A stretch of DNA of 62,659 nt, the filler included. It is 7 parts of 7 records of this genome, joined end to end, with 100 filler letters (N's around TTAATTAATTAA, not from the genome) between each part and the next. Parts side by side here need not be neighbours in the genome. Positions count along the whole stretch, not along the records: positions 15,650 to 28,601 come from SRR31156797_21741; 6 more parts are not named here. One strand, given 5' to 3'. Every line of letters begins with the position of its first letter. The stretch's first letter is position 1. Made by a program: the position numbers and the translations under genes. This document shows positions 2,208 to 28,701 of this stretch, piece after piece. Below the pieces are notes generated by a model, which saw only the letters and a list, made by a program, of their open reading frames with translations, was not told where the DNA came from and made no database searches.

Positions 2208-2368
2208 TTTGCTAAAAATATTAATTCCCCAGGATTCATACTACATATTTCTAATTTAATTATAAGAATTCTGTAAAATTCATTCCCCAATTAAATAAAA
2301 CTAATTATTTAATGTTGTAAATTACGTTAGAATTAAAATAAAATTGTTTCACTATTAATCATTTAATC

Positions 2369-2758: not shown

Positions 2759-2835
2759 AAAAAGACTCATTTTCGAAAAAAAATACCGGATTTCGTAACT
2801 TGCGCTAATCCGGTTTTTCATTTAATACATTCAAT

Positions 2836-3303: not shown

Positions 3304-3306
3304 AAT

Positions 3307-3720: not shown

Positions 3721-3839
3721 AGGATGAAGATTTAAAGATTAATGATTACTTTCCTGTGTATTAATATATAAGCACAAATTCACCTAAAAAAACAGTTTGT
3801 CTAACTTTCAGTTATATTTGCACCCAGAAATTATTTAAT

Positions 3840-5087: not shown

Positions 5088-5115
5088 TATCGTTATTTTA
5101 GAAGAGCCATTTTAT

Positions 5116-5775
5116 TTAAAGATATTCCAATTTAATATCCCGAATTGCACCTGTTGTATTCCAGGTACATATTCCAAATGGTTTTGAAAGCGTAACTTCC
5201 GGTCTGATATATAATTTATGTTCGCCTATTTCAAAATCCAACACATTTTCTTCATTTATCCAGGCTTCAATTTTAGTACGAGTTACCTTCAACCTGATTT
5301 TGTACCAAGTATTTTTTTCAAAGTTCATTAACACTTTTGTTACATTTTCTGAAGTATCTAAACCGTCGATTGTGCTCAAACCGACTACCGGACCACCCCA
5401 TCCGCCAACAATAAACGAACAAAATGTTTCATTTACAGGAAAAGTTATTCCACAAAAAAAATCATTCCCCGAAACCCTCATTGCGTTCATTCTTACTTCA
5501 TAATTAACCGTTGGAAAATCGCGGGTGTAGTTTATTCCGGTACAACCATCGCCGTACGAAAGAACGATTTTCCCATCGGTAACCTGAACCGGTCCTTGTG
5601 TTCCAAAATTTGTAACTTCCCAGCCCGTTAAAGTTTTTCCGTCAAAAATAGAATTCTCAACATTACCCTGAACTAATTCTTCTTGTTTAATTTTAGTACC
5701 TCCAGACCGACAAGCAGTAAAAAAAAATATGAATAAAAATATTTTCCAGTAATTCATTGATTTACATTTAGTCAC
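5116..5775 (-). CDS. DUF1080 (3-keto-disaccharide hydrolase-like) lipoprotein
   Basis: Lipobox FTAC; IFDGKTLTGW, GNDFFCG and GGWGG motifs; true start may be the second Met (MNYWK). Confidence 0.75.
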   Translation of the reverse strand: MTKCKSMNYWKIFLFIFFFTACRSGGTKIKQEELVQGNVENSIFDGKTLTGWEVTNFGTQGPVQVTDGKIVLSYGDGCTGINYTRDFPTVNYEVRMNAMRVSGNDFFCGITFPVNETFCSFIVGGWGGPVVGLSTIDGLDTSENVTKVLMNFEKNTWYKIRLKVTRTKIEAWINEENVLDFEIGEHKLYIRPEVTLSKPFGICTWNTTGAIRDIKLEYL

Positions 5776-5804
5776 AAATATTTAAACGCTTTACTTTTTG
5801 AATA

Positions 5805-6284
5805 TTATTCATTTAATTCGCGCAATGCTTTTCGCGAAGCTCTATCGACCAACGTAAAGAAGCGGTCGGTTTCATTTTTCAAACCCGATTTTTTATGCCC
5901 TTTAACTTTTACAAATTCGCAATTCAATTTATCTGTAATCTGAAAAAATTCTTTGTATAATACCCAATTCTTAAGCCGCATTCCTTTTTTTGAATAGAAA
6001 TTGTTTATTTCCATTTTCTCACGACGGTTTTGTAATTTTACAATATTCTGTGAATCGGTATAAACAGTAATCAATTCTGCATATTCAGGTATTTGATTTA
6101 ATGCCCATAAAAGTGTCTGTAATTCAAGCTTTGTAGAGGAAGTTTGGTGAAATTTTTTAACTTTTACTGATTGATTTAGATTATCAACAAATTTATCATT
6201 TGCTTTTATCAACAACATTGCACCAAACCCAACATCTGTTGTTGTGTTTACGCTACCATCAGTATATAATATTAAATCCTTCAA
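5805..6284 (-). CDS. rnhA: Ribonuclease HI family protein
   Basis: YTDGS, STKLEL, YTDS, KVKGH and VDRAS catalytic motifs; TTG start. Confidence 0.85.
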   Translation of the reverse strand: MKDLILYTDGSVNTTTDVGFGAMLLIKANDKFVDNLNQSVKVKKFHQTSSTKLELQTLLWALNQIPEYAELITVYTDSQNIVKLQNRREKMEINNFYSKKGMRLKNWVLYKEFFQITDKLNCEFVKVKGHKKSGLKNETDRFFTLVDRASRKALRELNE

Positions 6285-6401
6285 CTTTTTTGTTGTATTA
6301 AATTATGTAAAACCAGATCCCAGTAACAAGATTATTTTTAAAGTAAATTTGATAATTCCATAAAACAAAAAAACAACTCAAAAAAGTTGCTTAAAATTTA
6401 G

Positions 6402-6435
6402 AAAAAAAAAGGGGCAACCTTCATCAAAGTTGCCC
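6402..6435 (-). terminator. Rho-independent terminator with no upstream ORF
   Basis: Minus strand GGGCAACTTT-GATG-AAGGTTGCCC-C-T9; 10-bp stem with one G-U pair. Confidence 0.7.
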
Positions 6436-6589
6436 ATACTTGTATTATGAAAGATAAAAAATAAGGGTTTGTCCAGTAAAACTATGCATTATTATATTAA
6501 AAACCAAATTTAAAAATCGGCTTTTTTTTGTTCGATAAACATCAATTTCTAAAATAAATCCCGGCTAAAATCAAGAAATCCAGAAAAGC

Positions 6590-6616
6590 AAAAAGGGCCG
6601 CTCAACAGCAACCCTT
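6590..6616 (-). terminator. Rho-independent terminator with no upstream ORF
   Basis: Minus strand AAGGGTTGCT-GTTG-AGCGGCCCTT then a T-rich tail; two G-U pairs form only on the minus strand. Confidence 0.65.
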
Positions 6617-6929
6617 ACAATAACTAGCTTTTCTATTAACTGGTAAACACCAATTAATAATTTAAAGTTACTCTTTTTGGTTTGAAAAATGTTTTTTGAA
6701 AAAAATATTATTCGCGAATTAACTTTCAAAATGCAAAAATCAGCATTTTTTACCTTTTCAATCAGAATTTTTAACCCCCTCTCTCAGCAATTAAAACCTC
6801 TAAATTCGATATTATTTCTAAAACACAAACAAAACTCATGTAATCTCAGAACCAAACGCAACAAAAAATAACTTACGAATTTTGTTATTTTTTAAACAAA
6901 TCGTATATTTACAGAAATTTTGTATAGAA

Positions 6930-7520
6930 ATGAATTCAAAAATGGAAAATCCAAAATACAGCAGCATCATAAAAACAGCACACAGTTTATTTTGGAAACA
7001 TGGAATTAGCAGGGTAAGTATCGAAGAAATTTGCAGAGAAGCCAACGTAAGCAAAATGACTTTTTACAAATTTTTCTCAAATAAAAAAGAACTGGGAAAA
7101 ACAGTTATCAATAGTATTATTGATGAAAGCATTGAGAAATACAATAAAATAATGAACGAGCCAATTTCATTTGAAGAAAAGATAAAAAAACAAATGCTGT
7201 TAAAATTTGAAGGAACAAAAGAGATTAGCGCCGAACTGGTAAAAGACATTTATTCCAATCAAAAATTAGGATTACACCTTCACTGGCAAAAACGTTCTGA
7301 TGAATTTGTAGATATTGTAAAAGAAGATTATCGAAAAGCGCAAAAAAACGGTTCGATTAGAAAAGATCTTAACCTCGATTTTGTTTTTATAATTAACAAT
7401 AAAATGGCCGGATTATTATCCGATCCGCAACTTACATCTATGTACGGGAATATGCAGGAACTAATTATGGAATATGCAAATCTAATTTTTTACGGAATTG
7501 TATCGCACCAAAAAGAATAA
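6930..7520 (+). CDS. TetR/AcrR family transcriptional regulator
   Basis: N-terminal HTH LFWKHGISRVSIEEICREANVSKMTFYKFFSNKKEL; ATG 6930 preferred over TTG 6882. Confidence 0.9.
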   Translation: MNSKMENPKYSSIIKTAHSLFWKHGISRVSIEEICREANVSKMTFYKFFSNKKELGKTVINSIIDESIEKYNKIMNEPISFEEKIKKQMLLKFEGTKEISAELVKDIYSNQKLGLHLHWQKRSDEFVDIVKEDYRKAQKNGSIRKDLNLDFVFIINNKMAGLLSDPQLTSMYGNMQELIMEYANLIFYGIVSHQKE

Positions 7521-7899: not shown

Positions 7900-7999
7900 N
7901 NNNNNNNNNNNNNNNNNNNNNNNNNNNNNNNNNNNNNNNNNNNTTAATTAATTAANNNNNNNNNNNNNNNNNNNNNNNNNNNNNNNNNNNNNNNNNNNN
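7900..7999. other. Artificial contig spacer
   Basis: N44-TTAATTAATTAA-N44 (stop codons in all frames). Confidence 0.99.
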
Positions 8000-15549: not shown

Positions 15550-15649
15550 NNNNNNNNNNNNNNNNNNNNNNNNNNNNNNNNNNNNNNNNNNNNTTAATTA
15601 ATTAANNNNNNNNNNNNNNNNNNNNNNNNNNNNNNNNNNNNNNNNNNNN
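15550..15649. other. Artificial contig spacer
   Basis: N44-TTAATTAATTAA-N44. Confidence 0.99.
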
Positions 15650-15650
15650 A

Positions 15651-16688
15651 CTTTCAAATGGTCCAATTGATGCAGAAGAGGGATGGGTTGCTGATACCTA
15701 TGGTGCCTTAGAAGGTCAAATCAATGCTTGGCCCCTTGATGAGAATATGATTGATTATACAACTGATGCAAATGGGCAACGAACTTCTGGAAATATCATT
15801 GATACAAAAGGGGATTTCAACCCTGGTGGTGAAGGAAGTAGCAGCGTTGATGTAACAGCTATTAATATTGATGCGATCACTGCTTTAAATGAAAATGGTG
15901 GTGAAGCAAATGTTGCAACAGGATATCATGCAGTTGAATTTTTACTATGGGGACAAGATCAAGACTATGCAAACTTTGTCAAAGATAGTGTAACAAATGG
16001 TCCACTTACAGCAGGTCAAAGACCACTGAGCGATTTTACTACAGATAAAGATGCGCAAAGAAGATTAGACTACTTAAAAGCAAGTAGTGATAAAATCGTA
16101 GCTGACCTTGAGATCGTAACAAATGCTTGGGAGAAAAAAGTATCAGGAAACTCGGGTCTTTATAGAGAAGCATTTCTTGGGCTTGGTTCACGTGCTATTG
16201 CTAAAGATGAAGCTTTAAAACAGATCTTTGCAGGTATGGGTGTATTTATCAAATCTGAACTAGCAAATGAAAGAATCGCTGTAGCAGTTCTAACTCCAAG
16301 TGAAGAGGATGAACACTCTTGCTTTTCAGATAATACTCACAGAGATATCGCTACAAACTATCAAGGGTTTAAAAATGTGTTAATGGGGACTTATAAAGGG
16401 AAACATTATGGTATGGCTCCTATTGATTCAGTTGACATTGAGACTAAAACACAAATCTTAGACCTTATGGCTTCAATTGAAAATAAGATCGCTTCGATCA
16501 ATGCAATTGCTGATACAAGCAGACATTTTGATTATCAAATTAGACCAAATGATCCTCAAGCAAAAGTGATTGTTAAGCTTAAAAACGAGATGAGAAAACT
16601 TGGTGATATGATGGTAAATGTGGCAAAAGCAAACGGTGTAAGCTTACAAGTAGAAGATGTAACTGATGCAGAAGAAACTAAAATATAG
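15651..16688 (+). CDS. Imelysin family iron-regulated protein (IrpA/IcmP-like), 5'-truncated
   Basis: Frame open from the contig start; INAWPLDE, GYHAVEFLLWGQD, ELANER and EDEHSCFSDNT motifs. Confidence 0.92.
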   Translation, partial: LSNGPIDAEEGWVADTYGALEGQINAWPLDENMIDYTTDANGQRTSGNIIDTKGDFNPGGEGSSSVDVTAINIDAITALNENGGEANVATGYHAVEFLLWGQDQDYANFVKDSVTNGPLTAGQRPLSDFTTDKDAQRRLDYLKASSDKIVADLEIVTNAWEKKVSGNSGLYREAFLGLGSRAIAKDEALKQIFAGMGVFIKSELANERIAVAVLTPSEEDEHSCFSDNTHRDIATNYQGFKNVLMGTYKGKHYGMAPIDSVDIETKTQILDLMASIENKIASINAIADTSRHFDYQIRPNDPQAKVIVKLKNEMRKLGDMMVNVAKANGVSLQVEDVTDAEETKI

Positions 16689-18066
16689 TTTTAGCTTTTT
16701 AAGTGGAGTAGCTCTTGCTACTACACTTCAAGCAAATACTTTACAAAAAGAGTTTGAAAAAAAACACTATACTAGTGATAATTCAAAAAAACTTTTTTCT
16801 CATAGAGTAACAGGTCTTAATGATGAGCAAATAGATCAATTTATCTTAGGGAAAAGCTTTTTTAGAATCCCATGGGTTGAAGCTCCAAGTGCTACTACTG
16901 CAAGAGATGGACTAGGACCTCTTTTTAGTGCAAACACATGTATTAGCTGCCATCCAAATAATGGAATATCTTCTATTTATACCGATAATGGCGATATAAG
17001 TAGAGGATATGTTTCAAGACTATCTATTCCTAGTAATGGAAGTATGGAACATAAGAATGAACTGACACTCAAAGGATTTGTAAGTGAGCCAGTATATGGA
17101 TCACAGCTAAGTATAAATGGATCTAAAAATGTTCCATTTGAGGGGAAACCAAAACTTACATATAAAAAGATCACCCTAACCTACCCTGATGGAGAAAAAG
17201 TTGAACTTCAAAAACCAATCCATGGAATTGATAATCAAGTAAAAGATTTACAATATGGAGAGATGGATAAAAACACCATTATATCCAATCGTATAGCACA
17301 AAGTTTAGCAGGGATGGGACTTCTTGAAAAAATCACCGATGAACAAATATTAGCCAATGAAGATATTGATGATAGCAATAAAGATGGGATATCTGGAAAA
17401 GCAAATAAAGTGTACTCATTGGAACATAAAACGTATACGCTTGGTCGATATACTTGGAAAGCGAGTGCTCCATCTATTATAGAGCAAACTGCTAATGCAG
17501 CTCATAATGATATGAGTTTAACCAGTCCATTTATCCAAGTAGAAAATTGTACTACCTTTCAAGAAGCCTGTAATAAAGCTCCAAAAGGAGATGCAATTCG
17601 AGCAGGAACTCCACATGATCTGCCACAGCAAAGACTAGAAGCAATTGCTTTTTATCTTAAAAATCTAAAGATCCCAAAATCAACAGTGACAGAAAAAAAA
17701 GGGGAAGAGCTTTTTAATACAATTGGTTGTGCAAAATGTCATATTCCAAGCTTTACTCTATCAAATGGAGCTACGACCAAACCTTATACTGATCTGCTTT
17801 TGCATGATATGGGAGAGGGTTTAAGTGATGGAAGAAGTGAGTTTTTAGCAAGTGGCAGTGAATGGAGAACTTCTCCACTTTGGTCTATTGGAAAGTATGA
17901 ACAAGCTTTAGGGAAAAAACCAAATCTTTTACACGACGGTCGTGCAAGAACTATCGAAGAAGCGATCCTTTGGCATGGAGGAGAAGCACTAAAAGCACAA
18001 AACTCTTTTATGGAACTATCTTCTGAAAACAGAGAAAAAGTAATTAAATTTATCAAGGAGTTATAA
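16666..18066 (+). CDS. Di-heme oxidoreductase (DHOR/DUF1111, IrpB-like)
   Basis: DGLGPLF...CISCH and CAKCH; PYTDLLLHDMG, WRTSPLW, LHDGRAR and AILWHGGEA motifs. Confidence 0.92.
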   Translation: MQKKLKYSFSFLSGVALATTLQANTLQKEFEKKHYTSDNSKKLFSHRVTGLNDEQIDQFILGKSFFRIPWVEAPSATTARDGLGPLFSANTCISCHPNNGISSIYTDNGDISRGYVSRLSIPSNGSMEHKNELTLKGFVSEPVYGSQLSINGSKNVPFEGKPKLTYKKITLTYPDGEKVELQKPIHGIDNQVKDLQYGEMDKNTIISNRIAQSLAGMGLLEKITDEQILANEDIDDSNKDGISGKANKVYSLEHKTYTLGRYTWKASAPSIIEQTANAAHNDMSLTSPFIQVENCTTFQEACNKAPKGDAIRAGTPHDLPQQRLEAIAFYLKNLKIPKSTVTEKKGEELFNTIGCAKCHIPSFTLSNGATTKPYTDLLLHDMGEGLSDGRSEFLASGSEWRTSPLWSIGKYEQALGKKPNLLHDGRARTIEEAILWHGGEALKAQNSFMELSSENREKVIKFIKEL

Positions 18067-19025
18067 TGAGAATTTTAGTTGTAGTAACCTTACTACTAAA
18101 TAGTCTATTTGCCAATGAGTATTTAGAATCAATTTATGAGAATATATTGATTAAAAATACAAAAACAGCAATAGAATCAACGAATAAGTTACAAAAAACT
18201 ATTCAAAAACAAGATGCAAAAAAAGCCAAAGAACTTTTTAGTGACCTTGTAAAAGAATGGAAAAGTGTCCAAGCATTTTATATCTTAGGTGACCTTGATA
18301 GTAGTTATATTGATATTCCTAGATATATTGATACTTTTCATCATGGAAATGAAGATATAACCGTCCAACTTCAAAGAGTGGTAAAAAGTGATGATGATCT
18401 AAGTATCTCACTTTTTAAACACTCCTTTAAAACGATCAATGCTCTTGAATATATCTTATTTGAACAAGATATAAAACAGCAAAGAGTAAAAGATATCGCT
18501 GTAACTATTACGGAGACTATCAAAGGATATCTTCAAGATATACAAACAGGATATAAGGAGACAAAACAAGCCTTTATAAATGATGAACAAAAAGCAAATG
18601 CTATGATGCTCAATGCTCTCATTGAAACCTCTTATAAGCTAAAAGAGTGGAGAGTGGGTGATCCTGCTGGGCTTAGTAGAAAGTATAAAAACCATCCCGA
18701 TAATAGTAGAGGGGAGTATTTTATCTCAAAGAACTCTTTTTATGCGATTGAAGCGATCCTTGATACCCATCTTGATATCTTAGGTAAAAGAGATTTTAGA
18801 AATTATGGATCTCTTATAGAATCATATGATATAAAAGAGGAACTACAAGATGCAATATCTCATCTAAAAGATGCAAAACAAAATCTAAGCACACTATCTT
18901 TAGATGATTTTAGTAAAGCAAAACCACTTTACAAGTCTCTAAAAAAAGTGCATATCTCTTATTATATCACTCTTATTGGGAAATTAAAGATCACAGCAAA
19001 GGTACTTGACGCAGATGGAGATTAA
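18066..19025 (+). CDS. Second imelysin-like periplasmic protein
   Basis: Signal peptide; INALEYILF motif; C-terminal DADGD typical of the imelysin-like partner of DHOR. Confidence 0.8.
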   Translation: MRILVVVTLLLNSLFANEYLESIYENILIKNTKTAIESTNKLQKTIQKQDAKKAKELFSDLVKEWKSVQAFYILGDLDSSYIDIPRYIDTFHHGNEDITVQLQRVVKSDDDLSISLFKHSFKTINALEYILFEQDIKQQRVKDIAVTITETIKGYLQDIQTGYKETKQAFINDEQKANAMMLNALIETSYKLKEWRVGDPAGLSRKYKNHPDNSRGEYFISKNSFYAIEAILDTHLDILGKRDFRNYGSLIESYDIKEELQDAISHLKDAKQNLSTLSLDDFSKAKPLYKSLKKVHISYYITLIGKLKITAKVLDADGD

Positions 19026-19917
19026 TTTATACGATCAATTCTTTGCAATGTTTGAATCTAATAAACGACTTTATTGGGTCTATGTTTTATCATCATTGAT
19101 GATAGCTGGACTCTATTTGTCTGTATTTAAAAAGCAAAGACGTATAAATCTAAGCTCTAAATTATGGCTCCATCCAAGCGCACTGCTTGATTATAAATAT
19201 TTTATAGTCTCATTTTTTATAAAAACCCTTTTGATCATCCCTTTTGTTTTGGGGGTAACCGAAGTTTCAATGTTTGTCTATGAATACCTTTTAGATACCT
19301 ATGGATTTATGAAAGTCACTCTATTTTCCTATGAAACAATTATCGTACTGTATACGCTGTGTCTTTTTTTAGTGAGTGATTTTACACGATATTGGATCCA
19401 TAGATGGCTTCATACGATCCCATTTCTTTGGGAGTTTCATAAGGTACATCATAGTCCAAAGGTTTTAAATCCTATGAGTTTTTATAGAGTCCATCCAGTA
19501 GAAAATATCCTTTTTGCTATTCGATATGCTCTAAGTATAGGAAGTGTCACCGGAGTATTTTTATACTTTTTTGGTGCATATATTAGTGTGATGGAAGTAC
19601 TTGGAGCAAATATCTTTTTATTTGTTTTTTCTTTGATGGGATCAAACTTAAGACACTCCCATATCAAACTAACGTATCCTAAAGTGATGGAGAACATTTT
19701 TATCTCTCCATACCAACACCAAATACACCATAGTACAAAACATACCGATAAAAACTTTGGGGGATATTTAGCGATCTGGGATAAAGTGTTTAGATCATTG
19801 GAGTATTCAAAAGATGTCAAAACAGTGAAATTTGGGCTTGGAGGGGGAGAGTTTAACTCTGTCTCCAAACTTTTATTTCAACCATTTATCAATATAGGAA
19901 AAAAATATGCAAAATAA
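19006..19917 (+). CDS. Sterol desaturase/fatty-acid hydroxylase family membrane di-iron protein
   Basis: His boxes HRWLH, HKVHH, RHSH and HQIHH; KNFGGYLAIWD; start probably the internal ATG (MEINL). Confidence 0.9.
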   Translation: MTQMEINLYDQFFAMFESNKRLYWVYVLSSLMIAGLYLSVFKKQRRINLSSKLWLHPSALLDYKYFIVSFFIKTLLIIPFVLGVTEVSMFVYEYLLDTYGFMKVTLFSYETIIVLYTLCLFLVSDFTRYWIHRWLHTIPFLWEFHKVHHSPKVLNPMSFYRVHPVENILFAIRYALSIGSVTGVFLYFFGAYISVMEVLGANIFLFVFSLMGSNLRHSHIKLTYPKVMENIFISPYQHQIHHSTKHTDKNFGGYLAIWDKVFRSLEYSKDVKTVKFGLGGGEFNSVSKLLFQPFINIGKKYAK

Positions 19918-21097
19918 AAAAATACCACTACTTACACTTTTAGCAACAAGTTTATTTTTTGCAGGGTGTACAAAAACCTTAGAACAAGAAGATCCAAAAC
20001 TCTTCTCCAAACTAGAAGCGAAGCTTGGAAAACAGCTTTTCTTTGATCCGATCCTCTCAAGCAACCAAACTCAGAGTTGTAGTAGCTGTCATAATCCTGA
20101 ACACGGCTTTATCGATAATAGAGACAATGGAGTACAAGGTGCAGGGAGTATGGGAGCTGATGGGAAAAGCATTGGAGATAGAAATGCTCCAACTGCAAGC
20201 TATGCAGTCTTTAGTCCAGATTTTCACTTTGACAATAAAAAGAAACAGTTCATCGGTGGACAATTTTGGGACGGAAGAGCAGCCCATATAAAAGAGCAAG
20301 CTGGAGGACCTCCACTTAATCCCGTTGAGATGGGGATGGTCTCTAGCAAAGATATTATGGATAGAGTTGAAAAAAGGCAAGACTACAATAAACAGTTTAC
20401 AAAACTTTATGGGGAAGAGATCTTTAAAGATGAAGAGAAATTCTACGATAAACTCACAGGTGCCATAGCCTCTTTTGAATCAACCAAAGAGTTTGCCCCT
20501 TTTGATAGTAAATATGATAGATTTTTACAAGGAGAATATGACCTTACTCCATTAGAAGATCTAGGACGAAGTCTATTCTTTTCAAACAATAATACGAGCT
20601 GTGCCTCATGCCATATGTTAAAAAAAGAGGATAGTCCAAGAGATACATTTACAAACTATCAGTACCACAATATTGGAACTCCACAAAACTCTTTGCTTAT
20701 GGAGAAAAATGTAGTTGATAAAGATACTTTTATTGATCATGGACTTATGAATAATCCACAAGTAAAAGATCGAGATGATGCAGAGAAATATGCAGGGAAG
20801 ATGAAAGTACCAAGCTTAAGAAACGTAGCAGTTACTGGTCCATATATGCATAATGGAGTTTTTCAAAACTTAAGCACAGTAGTAGCTTTTTATGATAAAT
20901 ATACCAACAAAGAGGCACTTATAAATCCAGAAACTAAAAAACCATGGAGAGAACCTGAGGTAAAAGTAGCAAAAGATGATCTAGAACTTTTACAACAAGG
21001 AAGAGCTTTAAATGAGAGAAAGATACAAGCTCTTGTAGCATTTATGAATCTTCTCACTGATAAAAAATATGAACATTTAATACCAAAGGATAATTAA
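19907..21097 (+). CDS. MauG-like di-heme cytochrome c enzyme (CcP/MauG superfamily), lipoprotein
   Basis: Lipobox FAGC; CSSCH and CASCH; GGQFWDGRA, LNPVEM, TGPYMHNGVF, FYDKY and INPET..PW.EPEV. Confidence 0.88.
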   Translation: MQNKKIPLLTLLATSLFFAGCTKTLEQEDPKLFSKLEAKLGKQLFFDPILSSNQTQSCSSCHNPEHGFIDNRDNGVQGAGSMGADGKSIGDRNAPTASYAVFSPDFHFDNKKKQFIGGQFWDGRAAHIKEQAGGPPLNPVEMGMVSSKDIMDRVEKRQDYNKQFTKLYGEEIFKDEEKFYDKLTGAIASFESTKEFAPFDSKYDRFLQGEYDLTPLEDLGRSLFFSNNNTSCASCHMLKKEDSPRDTFTNYQYHNIGTPQNSLLMEKNVVDKDTFIDHGLMNNPQVKDRDDAEKYAGKMKVPSLRNVAVTGPYMHNGVFQNLSTVVAFYDKYTNKEALINPETKKPWREPEVKVAKDDLELLQQGRALNERKIQALVAFMNLLTDKKYEHLIPKDN

Positions 21098-21098
21098 G

Positions 21099-22103
21099 AT
21101 GCTAAAAATACTATTAACACTTTCAATACTTCTCTCAACGATCTATGCAAATGAAGTAAACGTATACTCCCATAGACACTACGAAGTAGATAAACAACTT
21201 TATAAAGAGTTTGAAAAACAAACAGGAATAAAGGTCAATATCATCAAAGCAAGTTCTGCTGAACTAATCCAAAGGATCGTCAAAGAAGGGAAATATACTA
21301 AAGCAGATCTTCTTTTAACGACCGATGTAGGGATGCTTGAACTTGCAAAAAGCAAAGGGATATTTGCACCTATCAAATCAAAGTTTTTAGATAAAACCAT
21401 ACCAAAGTATCTAAGAGATAAAGATAACCTTTGGTTTGCTCTTACAAAAAGAGCACGGGTGATCGCTTATAATATAGATGAAATAGAAAAAAGTGAGCTT
21501 AGCACCTATGAAGCTCTTACGGATAAAAAGTGGAAAGATAGAATCGTAGTGACAAAAAGTAATGAGGTATATAATCAATCTCTTTTAGCTTCTCTTATTG
21601 TAAATAATGGTCATGAATCAGCAAAAGAATGGGCAAAAGGGATCAAAGCAAATATGGCAAGAAGACCAACAGGAGCTGATAAAGACTCTTTAAGAGCCAT
21701 CGCAGCAGGTCTTGGAGACATAGCGATCGTCAATACCTACTATATCGGCCAAATGTTAAAAGGAACAAGCTTTAGTGATAAAGCAACAGCTGAATATATC
21801 GGTGTATTTTTCCCAAATCAAAAGGACAGAGGAACGCATATCAATGTCTCAGGAGCAGGTGTAACAAAATATGCAAAACATAAACAAAATGCTATAAAAC
21901 TGATAGAGTTTTTAGCAAGCAAAAAAGCACAAGAGCTTTTTGCAAGTATTAACTTTGAATACCCAGTAAACAAAGAAGCAAAAGTATCAGATCTGCTTAT
22001 CTCTTGGGGTGAATTTAAAGAAGATACAACGGCTCTTGATAAAGTGGGAAGTAAAAATGTAGAAGCGGTAAAAATCTTTCACGAAATTGGTTGGGATAGA
22101 TAA
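21099..22103 (+). CDS. fbpA: Fe(III) ABC transporter substrate-binding protein (FbpA/FutA type)
   Basis: VNVYSHRHY, YNQSL, VNTYY tandem Tyr ligands, GTHINVSG, NFEYP. Confidence 0.9.
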   Translation: MLKILLTLSILLSTIYANEVNVYSHRHYEVDKQLYKEFEKQTGIKVNIIKASSAELIQRIVKEGKYTKADLLLTTDVGMLELAKSKGIFAPIKSKFLDKTIPKYLRDKDNLWFALTKRARVIAYNIDEIEKSELSTYEALTDKKWKDRIVVTKSNEVYNQSLLASLIVNNGHESAKEWAKGIKANMARRPTGADKDSLRAIAAGLGDIAIVNTYYIGQMLKGTSFSDKATAEYIGVFFPNQKDRGTHINVSGAGVTKYAKHKQNAIKLIEFLASKKAQELFASINFEYPVNKEAKVSDLLISWGEFKEDTTALDKVGSKNVEAVKIFHEIGWDR

Positions 22104-22105
22104 CA

Positions 22106-23686
22106 TTGAAACTCTTTAACCGATATGTGAGTATCAGTACCCTTATCACTTTATTGATACTCCTTCCTATTGTTTCGTTGCTATTTTTCTCTTTTGGACA
22201 TGGAACAGGAACTTTAGAGCATCTTGCCAATACAGTTTTAAGTGAGTATATTTTAAATACACTCAAACTAATTGTATTTGTCTCTATTTTTGCACTAATC
22301 TTTGGAGTACTAAGTGCTTATTTTACAAGCTTTTATGAGTTTCGTTTTGCAAAAACATTTAGTATCCTTTTAGCTTTGCCTTTTGTGATCCCAACTTATA
22401 TCTTAGGATATATCTATGGAGACCTTTTAGGTTTTTTTGGACCAGTTCATATCTTTTTAAAAGAGCTTGGAGTGATTGATCGAGGATTTTTTAACATCCT
22501 TCAATTTAACTCTGTATCGGTAATACTAGCTCTTGGGCTTTATCCATATATATACCTTATCGTAAAAGCCTCTTTTTTAAAAAGCAGCTCAGCTCTTCAT
22601 AATGTGGCTCTTAGTCTTGGAAAAAATAGATGGGAACTTTTTTATAAAGTGATCTTACCTCTATCTCGTCCAGCGATCATTGGAAGTCTAGCACTAGTGA
22701 TTATGGAAGTGGTCAATGAATATGGAGCAGTTGCATACTATGGTGTAGATACTTTAAGTACAGCTATCTATTCTAGTTGGTTTTCGATGAATGATCCTGC
22801 CAGTTCTGCCGTTTTAAGTATTATTGCTATGTCGATCATATTTATCTTGCTTTTTATTGAAAAGTATTCAAGAAAAAACACTAGCTATAAAATAGAAACC
22901 ATCTCAAAAGAGATCAAAAAAACACCACTTAAAACTTGGCAAAAGTTTTTTGTCTATAGTTTTTTATCTATTCCTATTTTATTTGGATTTATTATCCCAT
23001 TTATTTGGATCATGATCTATACCCTTAAACATGCTCCAAGTGTTTTAGATGATGAGTTTATCGGTGCAGTTTTCAATAGTTTTATAAGTGCCTCACTTTC
23101 AGCTTTTATCATTGTGATATTTGCTGTGATCATCAGCTATACTTTACGAATCTCAAAAAAAGGGAGTATCAAATATCTTCCAAAAGTAGCTGGTATTGGG
23201 TATGCGATTCCTGGAGTGGTGATCGGTGTGGGGATGATCACTTTACTTGGAGATATAGATAACTATTTGATACAACAGTTTGGACTAGGTGAGCTTCTTT
23301 TAAGCGGAACACTCTTTGCTCTTAGTTTTGGATATGTGGTACGATTTTTAGCAGTTGGTCTTAATATGATAGAATCAAGCTATGAAAAGATCAGTATCAA
23401 TATCAATAAAGCTTCAAGGAACTTGGGGAAAAACTACTTTCAAACTCTTCTGTTTGTAGAACTTCCACTTTTAAAAAAGACTCTTTTATTTGGATTTTTA
23501 CTTGTGTTTGTAGATATTATCAAAGAGCTTCCTCTTACACTAGTACTTCGTCCATTTAACTACGAAACACTCTCAACAAAAACCTATGAATATGCAACCA
23601 ATATGATGATACAGCAAAGTGCCGTGTATGCTTTTGTGATCATTATACTTTGTTTTATTCCAGTTCTTATTAGTAATAAAAGGTAA
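22106..23686 (+). CDS. fbpB: Fe(III) ABC transporter permease
   Basis: Two permease repeats; LYPYIY, LPLSRPAI, GYAIPG and KELP..L.LRPFN motifs. Confidence 0.9.
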   Translation: MKLFNRYVSISTLITLLILLPIVSLLFFSFGHGTGTLEHLANTVLSEYILNTLKLIVFVSIFALIFGVLSAYFTSFYEFRFAKTFSILLALPFVIPTYILGYIYGDLLGFFGPVHIFLKELGVIDRGFFNILQFNSVSVILALGLYPYIYLIVKASFLKSSSALHNVALSLGKNRWELFYKVILPLSRPAIIGSLALVIMEVVNEYGAVAYYGVDTLSTAIYSSWFSMNDPASSAVLSIIAMSIIFILLFIEKYSRKNTSYKIETISKEIKKTPLKTWQKFFVYSFLSIPILFGFIIPFIWIMIYTLKHAPSVLDDEFIGAVFNSFISASLSAFIIVIFAVIISYTLRISKKGSIKYLPKVAGIGYAIPGVVIGVGMITLLGDIDNYLIQQFGLGELLLSGTLFALSFGYVVRFLAVGLNMIESSYEKISININKASRNLGKNYFQTLLFVELPLLKKTLLFGFLLVFVDIIKELPLTLVLRPFNYETLSTKTYEYATNMMIQQSAVYAFVIIILCFIPVLISNKR

Positions 23687-23689
23687 AAA

Positions 23690-24433
23690 ATGCTTAGTTT
23701 AAAAAATATAAAAAAATCTTTCGAAGAAAAACAGATATTACAAGGGATCAACCTTGAAGTGAGTAAGGGGGAGATCATCTCTATCTTAGGACAAAGTGGA
23801 AGCGGAAAAAGTACTATTTTAAACCTTATTGCAGGCTTTGAAGAACCTGACAATGGACAAGTTACTTATAAAAATAAACTCCTTTGTAGTCAAAATATTT
23901 TTATAGAACCGCAACATAGAGATATAGGATTTGTATTTCAAAACTACGCCCTCTTCCCACATTTAAGTGTAAAAGAGAATATCCTTTTTGGGATCGATAA
24001 AGAATCGAAACCTACAAAGGCACGAATTCTACACGAGATGATAGAGTTACTTGATTTAGACGGAAAAGAGGATCAATACCCTCATCAATTAAGTGGTGGA
24101 CAACAACAGCGCGTTGCAATTGCAAGATCAATTGCAAAAGGGAGTGATCTGATCTTATTTGATGAAGTATTTTCAAGTATTGATTCAATTTTAAAACTAA
24201 AGATTCTTACTCAATTAAAAAGAATTTTAAAAGAGAGAAATATCACTGCAATCTTTGTAACCCACTCTCCTAGAGAAGCAGTGATGCTAAGTGATAAAAT
24301 TGCCTATATAGAAGATGGACAGATTTTGCAATACGACACTCCAAAAAATCTCAATCAAAATCCAGCTTCACAGTCAGTATCAAATCTTTTTGGGGATAAT
24401 AGTTTTATTTTTTCTAAGGTTCAGTTTCATTAG
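23690..24433 (+). CDS. fbpC: Fe(III) ABC transporter ATP-binding protein
   Basis: GQSGSGKS, FQNYALFPH, LSGGQQQR, ILFDE and VTH motifs. Confidence 0.9.
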   Translation: MLSLKNIKKSFEEKQILQGINLEVSKGEIISILGQSGSGKSTILNLIAGFEEPDNGQVTYKNKLLCSQNIFIEPQHRDIGFVFQNYALFPHLSVKENILFGIDKESKPTKARILHEMIELLDLDGKEDQYPHQLSGGQQQRVAIARSIAKGSDLILFDEVFSSIDSILKLKILTQLKRILKERNITAIFVTHSPREAVMLSDKIAYIEDGQILQYDTPKNLNQNPASQSVSNLFGDNSFIFSKVQFH

Positions 24434-24436
24434 AGA

Positions 24437-25150
24437 CTAACCTACCAATGGATTTTGTTTATTATTTCTAGTAAAAGCTTCTAAAGTAGAATTTTGTTCA
24501 TCTTTTCTTTTTGTATATTCAGTCATTATTTCACTAAAAGATTGAGTTACAGCAGTAAAATTTACACTTTTATAAAAACCAGGATAGTTCTCTTCAACTC
24601 TTTTATGAAATTCTGGATAACCATTCATATAATGGAACAAATCCTCTGATTTAAAACTATAATCTAAAGTACGCCTTCCACCTCCACTTAAACTATAAGA
24701 CCAATTCTTAGGATCTTTTTTAAAAGCTTCAGCAACCTCTGGATTCATTAGACTATTTTCATAATTAATAGGCTTATCAATTTGAGCATGCATATCTGCT
24801 ATAGGGAGAAGTACAGTTTTAATAAAATCACCAAAGTCTTCACCTCTATTATATGTATCGTTAAGTTTGTCAAATAGTACTTCATTTAAAATATCATCAT
24901 CTGAATATGAAGTCATACCATGTAAAGCACCTATTTTAACTTCAGTCTCTCTAGGTAAATTGCTATCTCTTATCCAATCTCTTAAATCATCTCCATTAAT
25001 AGCTTTATAATCTTCAAAAGTAAAACTATCAATATCAAAGGGTTGAGTCATATCAAACTTTTTTTCTGAAAATTCTTCAACCTCTTGTGTTTGAGATCCC
25101 TTTTGTACAGTGTCTACATAAGTTGTATTTGCTGTTGATTCTACTTGCAT
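24437..25150 (-). CDS. Hypothetical acidic protein, MQxxS family paralog 1
   Basis: 237-aa ORF, AAAGGA RBS; visible similarity to 25161-25937. Confidence 0.8.
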   Translation of the reverse strand: MQVESTANTTYVDTVQKGSQTQEVEEFSEKKFDMTQPFDIDSFTFEDYKAINGDDLRDWIRDSNLPRETEVKIGALHGMTSYSDDDILNEVLFDKLNDTYNRGEDFGDFIKTVLLPIADMHAQIDKPINYENSLMNPEVAEAFKKDPKNWSYSLSGGGRRTLDYSFKSEDLFHYMNGYPEFHKRVEENYPGFYKSVNFTAVTQSFSEIMTEYTKRKDEQNSTLEAFTRNNKQNPLVG

Positions 25151-25160
25151 TTAATATCCT

Positions 25161-25937
25161 TTAAACTTGAATATTTACTTGATTAGTTTCCTCTTTTTTT
25201 GCTAAAAGAGAATTATAATTATCATTCATTCTGCTATATCTCTCATAAGCTTCTTTATAGTCATCAAATACAGCTGTTCCTCTTGCTTGTTCCATTTTTT
25301 GTTTTGATATTTCTAGCATAGTAGATAAAAAGTCTCCTGCTTCTTCTGAACTTAATAAAGTATCATTATAACTACTTCCTTGAACACCACTTTCATATCT
25401 TGCTTTATCTGCGGCATTCATAAAGATTCCTTGAGCCCTAGGATTATCTACACCTGCCTGAATTGCAGCATAATATTCAGGACTTACCTCTAATACATTA
25501 CTTAAAGTAGGACTACCTAAAGAGTAATCCATTGTTTCTTTTGCCATTTGAATAGAAAACTCATGACGAGATTGCATAGATACTTTTGATTTTGCTTCCA
25601 TAAATACTGCTTCATTGGCTACATCATCTTCACTAAAGTTATTAGATACACCAATCATAAACTTGATTTGACTTTTTTCCTCTTCAGATCGCTCTGAAAA
25701 ATATTCATCAACTTCTTCATAAGTCATCCCTTTAGTATTTGCATACGTTAATACTTCATGATATCTTTCTGGCTGTTGCTCTTCTACACTTTTTACAGAA
25801 GATGAAGTATCCACTTTCTCTGTTGTACTCTCTTTTGTAAGTTCCTCTTCAAACTTTCCAGTTGAAGTCTCTTTTTGTTTAGTTTGTAAAGCACTTAGGT
25901 ATTGATCTGAGATATTTGATGTTGAGTTGATTTGCAT
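25161..25937 (-). CDS. Hypothetical acidic protein, MQxxS family paralog 2
   Basis: 258-aa ORF, AAAGGA RBS, S/T-rich N-terminus without a hydrophobic signal peptide. Confidence 0.8.
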   Translation of the reverse strand: MQINSTSNISDQYLSALQTKQKETSTGKFEEELTKESTTEKVDTSSSVKSVEEQQPERYHEVLTYANTKGMTYEEVDEYFSERSEEEKSQIKFMIGVSNNFSEDDVANEAVFMEAKSKVSMQSRHEFSIQMAKETMDYSLGSPTLSNVLEVSPEYYAAIQAGVDNPRAQGIFMNAADKARYESGVQGSSYNDTLLSSEEAGDFLSTMLEISKQKMEQARGTAVFDDYKEAYERYSRMNDNYNSLLAKKEETNQVNIQV

Positions 25938-25963
25938 TTTTTGTCCTTTTCATTTCCACTAAG

Positions 25964-25998
25964 AAAATTCTAACAAAAAGATGTCACGATAGCGTCAC
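25964..25998 (-). promoter_or_regulatory. Promoter with GTGAC(G/A) direct repeat, copy 1
   Basis: Minus strand GTGACG-N5-GTGACA-TCTTTT-TGtTAGAAT (extended -10); 30/35 nt identical to 27337-27371. Confidence 0.75.
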
Positions 25999-26066
25999 AA
26001 AAACTTTTATATATAGTTTTTTAATATCTATTCAATAAAATACATATGTGTTATTTAATAGATAGC

Positions 26067-27310
26067 TTAGCTTTCTAAATCATCCTTTTGCTCTTTTATA
26101 TTTTTATCAAAGTTATCAATGAGTACCTGAATGAAACCTCTTTGTTTCTCTAAATATTCATGATCTAGGTCTTCATCTTTATTACTATTTAAATCTTGAA
26201 TTCTATGTTCAAAATATGCTTTTATATTATCAACAATAAAGTTTTGATAAGTTTGATCCATATCTTGTGTCAAATTAATATTTCCATCAAAAGTAAAGTC
26301 TTCATACTCTTCTTTTAAAGGATCTGCTTTTTCTTGAAGAGTAGCAAAGTTATTTAAATAGTCTTGAAAAGAAAGTCCTGGTATCCTATCAAAATTTAAA
26401 GAAGTGTTTATTACCCCATTTCCAAAAACATTAGATTTTAATGCCTGTACATCTTCTGTACTAAGGGAATCAAGAGTTTCTAAAACTGCTTGCTTTAAAG
26501 GCTCATTATCAATTTGATGAAATCCATGCTCTTTTTTATCTCCATAAGGAAGACCAGATATCCTAATTGCTCTTTGATTCCCATAATCTAATAAGCCCAA
26601 TGAAGCATAAGCTTCTGCTCTATATAAAGCTTCTTCTTCACTTAATCCTTTATCGATCCATTTATTTACAAATGCCTCAAACTCTGGTGCATTCTCGTAT
26701 CTATTTTGAGATGTTTCTATAGAGAATTGATAGTTCCACACTCTTCCCCTCTGTGCACTTTCATTTAGTTCTATATCATGTGTTTCAGCTAACCCAATAT
26801 GCAGTTCTGCTTCATCGAGTGATAATCGAACTAATTTCCCATCATAAATAATATCTCTTGGATCAACATTTTTAATTTGCTCTAAATATTGAGCATATTT
26901 TTCAGGTGGTTCATAATCTGGATTATCTTTATTTGCCCAGTACTCTAACTTTGCTTCCATAAAATCCTCATACTCATTTTGATAAAACTGTTGTATTTTA
27001 TCACTTCTTTGGATTGCTTCTTCGTTAGTCATTGTTGAAGGTTTTTCAAAACCTTTTTCAGCATAAGAGGGTTCTGTTTTTGCAGTTTTAATGATCTTAC
27101 TTAATATTATTTGCTTGTCCACTCTTTATTTGCTTTCTCTTCATGATACTTACTAGAAAAATTATCTCTACCAACATTGCTTTGTGTAGGTTTTTTTGAA
27201 GATTGCTCTGTAATCGCTTCTTCAAAACATTTTGAAGGGCTTTCATGACGTTTCTTTTGAAGGCCATTTATATATTGTTGTGTAAGTCCTGAAGCTGAAT
27301 CAATTTGCAT
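26067..27310 (-). pseudogene. MQxxS family paralog 3, split into two overlapping frames (27107-27310 and 26067-27122)
   Basis: ATG 27310 with AAAGGA RBS gives MQIDS..., which stops at 27107; a 351-aa ORF overlaps in another frame from GTG 27122 with no clear RBS. Confidence 0.55.
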
Positions 27311-27336
27311 TGTATATCCTTTGAAGTAACTTTCAT

Positions 27337-27371
27337 AAAATTCTAGCAAAAAGTTGTCACAGTGGCGTCAC
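27337..27371 (-). promoter_or_regulatory. Promoter with GTGAC(G/A) direct repeat, copy 2
   Basis: Minus strand GTGACG-N5-GTGACA-ACTTTT-TGcTAGAAT upstream of ATG 27310. Confidence 0.75.
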
Positions 27372-27491
27372 GAGGATTCACCTTACTTTCATATTTCTTT
27401 AGAATATGACATAGTATGTGATATGTTAACTTTTTTAGGTAATACCACTTTTATTTTGCTTAGATAAAATTTCACTAAAAAAGGTTTCTAT

Positions 27492-28043
27492 ATGTTAGAA
27501 GTACTACTGTTATCTTTTGCTCTTGCTATGGATGCTTTTGCAGTATCTATTGGACTTGGAGTAAAAACACAAACTTTTAATACAAGGTTTGCAATTAAAG
27601 TTGCTCTATATTTTGGTCTTTTCCAAGCTTTAATGCCTTTATTTGGATATCTTGCAAGTGTAGGAGTGGGAAGTGTTATAGAGTCTATCGATCATTGGGT
27701 GGCTTTTATTTTACTTAGTTTAATTGGTGGGAAAATGCTTTATGAGAGTTTCCAAGAACCCACGGAAGAAGAGTTTACAAAAATTACAAATAAAGTTCTT
27801 TTACTTTTAGCTATTGCTACAAGTATAGATGCAATGGCTGCAGGATTTACACTTCCACTCATGACTTTAGATCCATTTATTTCAATGCTGCTAATTGGAG
27901 TGATCACTTTTGTTTTAAGTTTCTTAGGAGTATTTATTGGAACAAAAGGTGGAACATTTTTAGAAGATAAAGCTGAAAAGCTAGGAGGAGTTGTCCTTAT
28001 AGCTATTGGAGTAAAAATATTAGTTGAACATACTCTTTTTTAA
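27492..28043 (+). CDS. mntP: Manganese efflux pump MntP
   Basis: Two repeats LAMDAFAVS and ATSIDAMAAG; FGLFQALMP; DHWVAF. Confidence 0.93.
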   Translation: MLEVLLLSFALAMDAFAVSIGLGVKTQTFNTRFAIKVALYFGLFQALMPLFGYLASVGVGSVIESIDHWVAFILLSLIGGKMLYESFQEPTEEEFTKITNKVLLLLAIATSIDAMAAGFTLPLMTLDPFISMLLIGVITFVLSFLGVFIGTKGGTFLEDKAEKLGGVVLIAIGVKILVEHTLF

Positions 28044-28047
28044 TATA

Positions 28048-28072
28048 TGAAGAGTCTTATTTAGACTCTTCA
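28048..28072. terminator. Hairpin between convergent genes
   Basis: TGAAGAGTCT-TATTT-AGACTCTTCA perfect 10-bp stem. Confidence 0.6.
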
Positions 28073-28212
28073 CAATATTTCCAGTTGAGCTCTTTCTCAA
28101 CTTGTTTTGATGTTTTCATTTGAGGTTTTTCTATATTTTTATTTGAAGCTGTACATCCTGCTATAAAAAATCCGATCAAACTTATCATCAATAGTTTTAA
28201 AAACATTTTCAT
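28057..28212 (-). CDS. Small lipoprotein (51 aa; not in ORF track)
   Basis: MKMFLKLLMISLIGFFIAGCTASNK...WKYCEESK; lipobox IAGC; AAAGGA RBS. Confidence 0.75.
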   Translation of the reverse strand: MKMFLKLLMISLIGFFIAGCTASNKNIEKPQMKTSKQVEKELNWKYCEESK

Positions 28213-28261
28213 GATCTATCCTTTTTTATGAAACAAAAGGTGTAAGACCTTTTGCTTTTGA

Positions 28262-28601
28262 TTAATCAAACTCTGGTTTTGGAGTTTTATCTGTGATAAC
28301 TGGGAGAATAGGATATTTGATCTCAGGTTTTTTACCAGTTAAAGATTTTAAGAAAGTCTCAATAGAAGTAAGCTCTTTATCACTCATAGTAATACCAAGT
28401 TGAGTTGAACCCATCTCTTTAATTGCATCTTTTAATGCCCAAATATTACCATTATGGAAATATGGTGCAGTCTCTTCTATATTTCTAAGAGTTGGTGTTT
28501 TTACCATACCATTTTTATCTCCTGTAAAATCCCCTTTTGCATAAGAGTATTTTGCATGAATTTGGAATGGCTGCATAGTTCCACCTAGTCCAATATCACT
28601 A
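28262..28601 (-). CDS. Bacterial di-heme cytochrome c peroxidase, C-terminal fragment
   Basis: KTPTLRNIEETAPYFHNG, EMGSTQLG and FLKSLTG motifs; 5' end lost at contig edge. Confidence 0.85.
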
Positions 28602-28701
28602 NNNNNNNNNNNNNNNNNNNNNNNNNNNNNNNNNNNNNNNNNNNNTTAATTAATTAANNNNNNNNNNNNNNNNNNNNNNNNNNNNNNNNNNNNNNNNNNN
28701 N
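28602..28701. other. Artificial contig spacer
   Basis: N44-TTAATTAATTAA-N44. Confidence 0.99.

Follow-up and report, generated by a model that had tools for sequence, protein, structure and literature searches.

The window analysed here, a DNA stretch of 62,659 nucleotides, encodes at positions 19907–21097 a MauG-like di-haem protein, the fifth gene of an eight-gene iron-uptake operon that also codes for imelysins, a DUF1111/DHOR protein and a membrane protein of the FA_hydroxylase ('sterol desaturase') family. Judged from its sequence, the MauG-like protein is a MauG-clade His/Tyr di-haem enzyme, and linkage, gene fusion and co-occurrence make it very probable that it has a role in the imelysin/DUF1111 iron system. 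Its tightest partner is the hydroxylase-family protein, not an imelysin. As a tentative account of its chemistry, we propose that the enzyme may be a peroxide-driven oxidant of partner-bound iron, which would be handed to imelysin and to the FutA-type protein encoded downstream.

The best PDB match returned by phmmer is MauG from Paracoccus denitrificans (3l4m; E 1e-102, 347 bits, residues 38–393), and the identity to Paracoccus MauG is 48% by tblastn. Other solved di-haem proteins score far lower, i.e., BthA (6nx0) 148 bits, MbnH (6e1c) 96 bits and canonical cytochrome c peroxidases (CcPs) at most 105 bits. In the 3l4m alignment the chain carries the residue numbers of MauG, and the features of the gene are as follows:

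19907..21097, + strand: MauG-like di-haem protein, 396 amino acids (Pfam CCP_MauG, PF03150, E 4.6e-48)
19907..19969, + strand: signal peptide with a lipobox-like FAGC at its end (Cys21), read from the translation
20078..20092, + strand: first haem motif CSSCH, residues 58–62, aligned with MauG Cys31–His35 of the five-coordinate haem
20267..20269, + strand: Trp121, counterpart of the MauG inter-haem Trp93 in the PDB alignment
20582..20599, + strand: Asn-rich loop SNNNTS ahead of the second haem motif, a mark of the cassette-linked subgroup
20600..20614, + strand: second haem motif CASCH, residues 232–236, aligned with MauG Cys201–His205 of the six-coordinate haem
20891..20893, + strand: Tyr329, the first Tyr of FYDKY, at the place of the MauG haem ligand Tyr294 in the PDB alignment

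The first-pass annotation of this DNA had reported two CxxCH motifs followed by a MauG-like C-terminal string (TGPYMHNGVF..VVAFYDKY..INPETKKPWREPEV), and translation of the open frame 19907–21097 confirmed both. Its assignment of a MauG-type Tyr ligand is upheld by the 3l4m alignment, which runs end to end and sets Tyr329 at Tyr294; the position is Tyr in 43 of 43 relatives and in all 87 loci of the groups A and B described below, and the first haem motif is likewise invariant in the 43 relatives. The ligand assignment rests on sequence alignment, and an AlphaFold2 model built from 43 sequences was poor (mean predicted local-distance difference test score, pLDDT, 63.7) and was left unused. The annotation was also right that no Trp stands ahead of the second CxxCH, where an Asn-rich loop takes the place of Trp199, and that the canonical CcP fragment at 28262 lacks the Tyr pattern, carrying the Met-type motif KEMGS where MauG has its Tyr motif.

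Distal-pocket residues Gln103, Pro107 and Glu113 of MauG are retained as Gln131, Pro135 and Glu141. The inter-haem Trp is more variable in the family, with Trp in 30, Tyr in eight, Leu in seven and His in one of the 46 group A loci, and Leu in 19, Trp in 17, His in four and Ala in one of the 41 in group B, i.e., Trp in 47 of 87. Trp199 of MauG, a surface residue at the substrate interface, is replaced altogether: the SNNNTS loop is three residues longer than the corresponding MauG loop and aligns an Asn with Trp199, and no Trp occurs at this position among the 87 loops listed for groups A and B. Since the PDB matches include MauG variants at position 199, the column is unambiguous. The signal peptide indicates that the protein is probably periplasmic and lipid-anchored; relatives have VGC, AGC or plain signal peptides.

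The protein scores 89.8 bits on NCBIfam TIGR03791 (TTQ_mauG, named for tryptophan tryptophylquinone, TTQ), below the cut-off of 443.85. Paracoccus MauG itself (L016:7896-9059, plasmid) reaches only 96.8, also below the cut-off, so that TIGR03791 represents a lineage apart and does not define the Paracoccus type. On TIGR04039 (MbnH family) the score is 142.2 bits, again below the cut-off (362.85), and Pfam scans of the neighbours revealed no MbnP-like gene. With Trp199 missing and no dehydrogenase to act on in the searches described next, the MauG-like protein is very unlikely to be a TTQ maturase.

Pfam scans of the contig and the window detected no methylamine dehydrogenase family, and the families of the light and heavy chains (PF02975 and PF06433) are absent from five of five related genomes that hold cassette loci; as a positive control, the light-chain search recovers the gene on a Paracoccus plasmid. 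In a sample of 401 evenly drawn Pseudomonadota genomes, eight contain the light chain and 21 a close homologue of the MauG-like protein (47–59% identity), and 20 of these 21 carriers are without PF02975, which bears out the annotation's statement that no methylamine dehydrogenase lies nearby. The one genome with both genes, G306 (2.0 Mb), has the homologue in a complete group A cassette (locus L111, G306:C1:594500-608500), 1 Mb away from the light-chain gene. The mau-linked di-haem gene of another sampled genome (G205) is only distantly related, with 95 bits on the hidden Markov model (HMM) of the cassette enzyme. A kinship of DUF1513, found in related clusters, with the dehydrogenase heavy chain was considered and rejected (BLASTP E 0.026 over 22 residues, no Pfam cross-hit).

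The operon lies on a contig of 12,952 bases (15650–28601, 33% G+C). Its eight + strand genes overlap or are spaced by at most 3 bases; terminator-like sites within it number 4 against 4.2 expected, and the promoter and terminator scans are at chance level. In order, and with the CcP fragment at the far end of the same contig, the genes are:

15650..16688, + strand: imelysin 1, IcmP/PA4370-like, with GYHAVE as its GxHxxE motif (Pfam PF09375, E 3.5e-40)
16666..18066, + strand: DUF1111/DHOR di-haem protein with two CxxCH motifs (Pfam PF06537, E 1.5e-77)
18066..19025, + strand: imelysin-like protein 2 (Pfam PF09375, E 1.6e-19)
19006..19917, + strand: membrane di-iron protein of the FA_hydroxylase ('sterol desaturase') family (Pfam PF04116, E 2.4e-24)
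19907..21097, + strand: the MauG-like protein
21099..22103, + strand: FutA/FbpA-type periplasmic Fe(III)-binding protein (Pfam SBP_bac_6 and PDB matches)
22106..23686, + strand: ATP-binding cassette (ABC) permease with two BPD_transp_1 domains (Pfam)
23690..24433, + strand: ABC ATPase (Pfam)
28262–28600, − strand: C-terminal third of a canonical CcP, cut by the contig end (PDB 4aal, E 7.5e-25)

The FutA-type protein matches Synechocystis FutA1 (2pt1, E 2.3e-101) and the Campylobacter jejuni protein 1y4t (E 1.9e-84), in agreement with the annotation's placement of the enzyme in an iron-uptake operon. Imelysin 1 has lost its 5' end at the contig start (N linker 15550–15649), and its full-length orthologue (L003:5399-6730) matches the IcmP structure 7xrx (E 9e-56). 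Imelysin-like protein 2 has a motif without His, INALEY; in an alignment of 29 sequences its KEW-R motif and residues Trp65, Tyr72 and Trp195 are invariant and its C-terminal LDADGD tail is nearly so, and this acidic tail could, from its composition, be a metal binder. Its stop overlaps the start of the hydroxylase-family gene, which overlaps both of its flanking genes. By sequence, the PDB holds no relative of the DUF1111/DHOR protein, of imelysin-like protein 2 or of the hydroxylase-family protein, and for the last of these Protein Atlas gave only 'sterol desaturase family' clusters.

The cassette recurs widely. Species-representative genomes contributed 15 loci and a metagenome scan 80, so that 96 loci were scored counting the window; their open reading frames (ORFs) were scored with HMMs built from the first loci, and a subset was checked by Pfam. 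The annotated plasmid loci L016 and L017 were kept apart, L015 is a fragment, and near-duplicates (L003/L018 and L035/L036 have identical proteins) mean that the counts somewhat overstate independence. Two groups were defined by the loop before the second haem motif: group A ('FFSN[NAQ]NxxC') comprises 46 loci including the window, and group B ('FFSxQF[TS]NC') comprises 41.

In group A, 38 of the 39 loci that extend at least 950 bases upstream have the hydroxylase-family gene immediately ahead of the MauG-like gene (exception L050). Of the 28 loci that reach 4.7 kb or more upstream, 27 keep the full five-gene order (imelysin 1–DHOR–imelysin 2–hydroxylase–MauG-like); the remaining one, L042, combines the hydroxylase/MauG-like pair with a nearby FutA gene and has neither imelysins nor DHOR. 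The same cassette occurs in the sampled genomes G252 and G306, and named hosts of group A are Arcobacteraceae, Sulfurospirillum, other Campylobacterales and Psychromonas. Of the 41 group B loci, 15 have the enzyme next to a classical imelysin–DHOR–imelysin–DUF1513 cluster. At least three gene orders occur, with the MauG-like gene after, before, divergent from, or inside the cluster, and group B enzymes stand beside classical clusters in the sampled genomes G019 and G027 too. Other neighbours in group B are ferritin-like genes (L064, L075), SufBD (L091) and unrelated genes, and the Azospirillum plasmid copy stands alone. DUF1513 is seen only in clusters of the group B type, and the fourth gene of the window encodes the hydroxylase-family protein. 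The linkage to imelysin, DHOR and 'desaturase' genes is thus strongly conserved. The window being seven contigs, the annotation's 'nearby' can refer only to the contig 15650–28601.

Genome-level co-occurrence points the same way. DHOR is found in 17 of the 21 carriers of the MauG-like gene and in 67 of the other 380 sampled genomes (Fisher p 2e-9, not corrected for relatedness), and the two genes lie within 5 kb of each other in six of the 17 genomes that have both. As many as 67 of 84 DHOR genomes do without the MauG-like enzyme, which identifies it as an optional accessory. Further iron-transport genes accompany part of the loci, namely a FutA-type gene on, or close to, the 3' side of 10 of 46 group A loci and an FTR1 gene upstream of the cassette in L006, L008 and L162. 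In the 23 group A loci that include the region ahead of imelysin 1, the sequence there that comes closest to the 19-base Fur-box consensus differs from it at 3 to 7 positions, and in 16 of them a Fur-box-like site with 3–5 mismatches ranks within the best 7% of equally sized segments of the same locus; in AT-rich DNA such sites are no more than suggestive.

The close association with the hydroxylase-family protein extends to gene fusion. Among the best 120 of 784 long relatives (E up to 0.001), nine cluster representatives are FA_hydroxylase::MauG-like fusions, and a representative search added another, P0245, so that fusions exist in at least ten protein clusters; fused forms occupy at least five places in a maximum-likelihood (ML) tree. 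At L010 the two genes are read through, with an internal ribosome-binding site and a TTG. A hydrophobic, signal-like segment separates the domains in the six fusions inspected and in L010, preceded in most by a run of Lys/Arg, an arrangement that fits a cytoplasmic C-terminus of the hydroxylase followed by a periplasmic haem domain. The His boxes of the hydroxylase-family protein are all kept and are invariant in 37 aligned relatives, in which its predicted periplasmic loop is not conserved.

The hydroxylase-family protein is not a private partner of the MauG-like enzyme, but a general companion of periplasmic iron-uptake proteins. Of the 401 sampled Pseudomonadota genomes, 31 have homologues, and the closest ones outside the cassette (~40% identity) again stand in iron contexts. 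None of the 19 loci seeded on the hydroxylase-family protein shows a multicopper oxidase in place of the MauG-like gene. In three Pseudomonadota genomes (L194, L195 and L203, ~950–7360 each) the hydroxylase gene accompanies DUF4856, imelysin and TonB-dependent receptor genes; L197 has DUF4856 and hydroxylase beside an imelysin–DHOR cluster, L198 has DUF4856, hydroxylase, FutA and a permease, and DUF4856 pairs with the hydroxylase also in L200. In L199 (5348–7459, − strand) a 704-residue open frame joins a hydroxylase-family protein to a FutA-type iron-binding protein.

Other domain combinations were noted among relatives of the MauG-like protein. Several that are 44–53% identical have an extra mono-haem cytochrome c domain, and further ones are fused to immunoglobulin-like domains. 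In P0126, P0128, P0129, P0133 and P0134 (52–55% identical) the MauG-like domain is fused to a pyrroloquinoline quinone (PQQ)-type glucose/sorbosone dehydrogenase (GSDH) propeller, and in these fusions the loop ahead of the second haem motif is of a third type. An apparent DHOR::MauG-like fusion, P0138, was given no weight, being a single cluster joined exactly at the shared CxxCH, with three haem motifs, and hence a possible assembly chimera.

A quick ML tree of 108 sequences shows group B as a clade that includes Paracoccus MauG (SH-like approximate likelihood ratio test, SH-aLRT, 100), with a nearest relative there that is 62% identical to the Paracoccus enzyme, and group A as a grade below it. 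An approximately unbiased (AU) test does not reject a position of Paracoccus MauG outside the whole family (p 0.41), and an origin of textbook MauG from the iron-linked family is possible but unproven. The MauG-like protein shares with Paracoccus MauG (3L4M) both haem motifs and the counterparts of Tyr294, Trp93 and Gln103/Pro107/Glu113, but differs in the longer Asn-rich loop at Trp199 and in its iron cassette, which takes the place of the mau context.

Compared with EfeUOB, the cassette likewise combines an imelysin-fold protein (EfeO in EfeUOB) with a periplasmic haem enzyme (the peroxidase EfeB) and, where FTR1 precedes it, an FTR1-type permease, but it differs in having a pair of di-haem proteins and an additional di-iron protein in the membrane; EfeB is a dye-decolourising peroxidase (DyP)-type b-haem enzyme and not a c-type di-haem protein. 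The closest counterparts in gene content are PA4370–PA4373 of Pseudomonas aeruginosa and VC1264–1266 of Vibrio cholerae, in which the first three genes are of the same kinds and in the same order, i.e., a GxHxxE imelysin, DUF1111 and an imelysin-like protein without the His, all on one strand; the cassette differs from such operons in having the FA_hydroxylase-family protein in place of DUF1513, and in the additional MauG-like enzyme. Fur-regulated imelysin–DUF1111–imelysin operons are described in the accessible text of PMC3143127, and mutant co-fitness ties DUF1513 and its four-gene operon to iron uptake, according to the part of bioRxiv 10.1101/072470 that deals with it.

MbnH and MbnP offer a second parallel, being a MauG-family enzyme encoded beside a periplasmic metal-handling protein. 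As outlined in a portion of PMC11951088, MbnH forms a kynurenine copper ligand in MbnP and so provides the best precedent for a modification-dependent metal site; the MauG-like protein is distant from MbnH (96 bits for 6e1c) and has no MbnP-like gene among the neighbours scanned. BthA of Burkholderia thailandensis (6NX0) is likewise a His/Tyr di-haem protein without a mau operon. In the available sections of PMC6405878, BthA is described as a MauG-like former of bis-Fe(IV) that needs no inter-haem Trp and can still turn over H2O2, and true MauGs fall 'largely' in one cluster of a sequence similarity network (SSN). BthA is far more distant from the MauG-like protein than Paracoccus MauG is (148 bits), belongs to another SSN cluster by the same sections of PMC6405878, and has no imelysin/hydroxylase context.

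In the mechanism that we tentatively favour, the MauG-like enzyme would reside at the outer face of the inner membrane beside the hydroxylase-family protein, and in some lineages the two would form one chain through an internal signal/anchor segment. H2O2, or O2 together with electrons, would react at the five-coordinate haem to give a high-valent state, and electrons would be drawn via the His/Tyr haem and the Asn-rich loop from iron(II) held on, or delivered by, the imelysin/DHOR partners. The resulting iron(III) would then pass to FutA and the ABC transporter in the window, or to the FTR1 permease at other loci, and the enzyme would correspond, as a haem protein, to EfeB of EfeUOB or to a ferroxidase. 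What we infer is the chemistry of the oxidant, where its electrons come from and how iron is handed over; the extra cytochrome c domains in relatives speak for electron transfer.

Several observations weigh against such a role. The His/Tyr haem stabilises an oxidant far stronger than iron(II) oxidation needs, and so strong an oxidant fits the oxidation of a protein residue or of an organic molecule better. The cassette already holds a peroxidase-like di-haem protein, DHOR, and a second one needs a reason; furthermore, the His boxes kept in the hydroxylase-family sequences suggest an oxygenase step that an iron oxidant does not explain. A FutA gene is present in only 10 of 46 group A loci and FTR1 in few. 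A Fur-box match with 3–4 mismatches is weak evidence in AT-rich DNA, and with the window's promoter region beyond the contig start this signal comes from the relatives. Finally, the dehydrogenase search covered the window and related genomes, and a dehydrogenase gene could lie elsewhere in this host.

A rival reading takes up the idea of the first-pass annotation that the enzyme modifies an operon partner such as one of the imelysins; a bis-Fe(IV)-type state would oxidise a Trp or Tyr of imelysin 2, imelysin 1 or DHOR to a metal-binding or redox-active residue that iron capture requires. We regard such a maturase role as rather unlikely. It would account for the His/Tyr haem of an enzyme 48% identical to MauG, with Tyr kept in 87 of 87 loci, and for the subgroup-specific loop at the Trp199 site, which shifts together with the neighbours: the group A loop goes with imelysin 2 and the hydroxylase-family protein, and the group B loop with the other imelysin type and DUF1513. 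The invariant Trp65, Tyr72 and Trp195 of imelysin-like protein 2 are in its favour, and the kynurenine made by MbnH in MbnP (described in part of PMC11951088) is a precedent. In a predicted complex of enzyme residues 23–396 with residues 17–319 of imelysin-like protein 2, the score is 0.43 against 0.17 for the best control, at least 70% of contacts are common to the runs and the partner has a pLDDT of at least 89, for a verdict of 'weak support'. Of 78 solved complexes, 51 reached the mark used, as did two of 108 mismatched pairs; at scores of at most 0.60, it was reached by five of the 78 solved complexes and by all four passing mismatches of 180, and a pass at this score is thus more often wrong than right. 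The docking raises the case for contact with imelysin-like protein 2 a little, and it cannot separate modification from electron transfer.

When classical clusters from 20 genomes without the enzyme were compared with 19 clusters that have it, its presence was not tracked by any Trp, Tyr, His, Cys or Met column of imelysin 1, DHOR, imelysin 2B or DUF1513. Moreover, Trp199 is absent, 40 of 87 loci have Leu, Tyr, His or Ala in place of the inter-haem Trp, 67 of 84 DHOR genomes manage without the enzyme, and the partner conserved in fusions is the membrane protein of the hydroxylase family, in which the predicted periplasmic loop is not conserved. Our data so far do not lend support to the annotation's suggestion that the enzyme installs a modified residue on an imelysin.

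An ordinary periplasmic peroxidase, which would clear H2O2 during Fe(II) transit and so limit Fenton damage with electrons from cytochrome c or DHOR, is in our judgement improbable. The distal-pocket residues common to CcPs and MauG are kept, some relatives have an added cytochrome c domain, BthA turns over H2O2 (as stated in the excerpted text of PMC6405878), and L003 has genes for peroxiredoxin and catalase a few kb further downstream. The canonical CcP fragment on the same contig can be read both ways, as a sign of peroxide defence in this region and as evidence that such an enzyme is already encoded; the invariant Tyr ligand in place of the peroxidase Met, and the order-preserving linkage and fusion to the hydroxylase-family protein, are unexpected for a general detoxifier.

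Less probable still is a two-enzyme membrane pathway, in which the hydroxylase-family protein would act on a lipid, a quinone or a lipidic iron chelator, and the tethered MauG-like enzyme would oxidise the product at the periplasmic face. The adjacency in 38 of 39 loci, the recurrent fusions, the invariant His boxes and the pair in L042 that stands without imelysins or DHOR would be explained, but group B enzymes work without the hydroxylase-family protein, and its close homologues accompany other iron proteins (DUF4856, imelysin with a TonB-dependent receptor, and FutA, including a fusion), which indicates a general role in iron uptake and not a substrate shared with the MauG-like enzyme. That the enzyme is a true MauG, maturing a tryptophylquinone dehydrogenase from another part of the host genome, is close to refuted: Paracoccus MauG is the closest solved relative and G306 has a light chain as well as a close homologue, but both chains are absent from five of five related genomes under a positive control and the light chain from 20 of 21 carriers, the G306 homologue belongs to a complete iron cassette with the light-chain gene 1 Mb away, Trp199 is missing, and the mau-linked gene of G205 is distant (95 bits).

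The annotation had held that such a system would be undescribed. This is not so for its core, as imelysin–DUF1111–imelysin operons are published (in the consulted portions of PMC3143127 and bioRxiv 10.1101/072470), but the claim appears to hold for the extension by MauG-like and hydroxylase-family genes. No paper on such an extension of imelysin operons was found in a search that had subscription journals and supplements outside its reach, and the words 'MauG' and 'desaturase' are both absent from the accessible text of PMC3143127. The papers found on imelysin together with MauG all concern Leptospira and are unrelated, and those found on MauG and iron yielded only a mis-named CcP in Actinobacillus.

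Directly past the iron operon, three consecutive ORFs of 237, 258 and 351 residues occupy 24437–27122 on the − strand and have no Pfam family at E 1e-10; all three are acidic, and the first two begin alike and are maybe paralogues. An MntP-type manganese efflux gene (27492–28043, + strand) lies between these family-less ORFs and the canonical CcP fragment. The seven contigs of the window differ in G+C content (33 to 49%) and are joined by linkers, each made of 44 N, a 12-base stop-codon linker and 44 N:

7900–7999, 15550–15649, 28602–28701, 39190–39289, 49195–49294 and 56961–57060: N linkers

Some contigs carry Bacteroidota-like genes (a type IX secretion system, T9SS, sorting tail, GH92 and GH18), and others archaeal-like genes (DUF2117 and the editing domain of an archaeal-type threonyl-tRNA synthetase, ThrRS); Campylobacterota-like genes occur too. 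The seven-contig record probably represents a mixed bin.

Long-range oxidation of a protein by a bis-Fe(IV) di-haem centre has MauG as its model system, and to our knowledge only two physiological substrates of this enzyme class have been recognised, i.e., pre-methylamine dehydrogenase and MbnP. The nearest relatives of the crystallised enzyme turn out to be mostly accessories of iron uptake, in 21 of 401 Pseudomonadota genomes and at many Campylobacterota loci, and the automatic name 'methylamine utilization protein MauG' on cassette genes is probably wrong. A bolder proposition, which we consider rather doubtful, is that a large branch of MauG-type enzymes, perhaps the source of textbook MauG, is dedicated to iron capture, tethered or fused to the membrane di-iron 'hydroxylase', with the high-valent di-haem centre modifying an imelysin residue or oxidising protein-bound iron. 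If true, this would amount to a haem-driven iron acquisition, dependent on modification or on an oxidant, without a described counterpart, and the hydroxylase-family protein would possibly be its missing inner-membrane step. The five-gene cassette, present in cultivable bacteria, offers a route to roles of MauG-type enzymes beyond quinone cofactor synthesis. It bears on the workings of the long-unexplained imelysin/DUF1111 systems and on why a membrane 'sterol desaturase' family protein accompanies, and fuses to, periplasmic iron proteins, and it points to an unstudied oxidising step in the iron capture of many bacteria.

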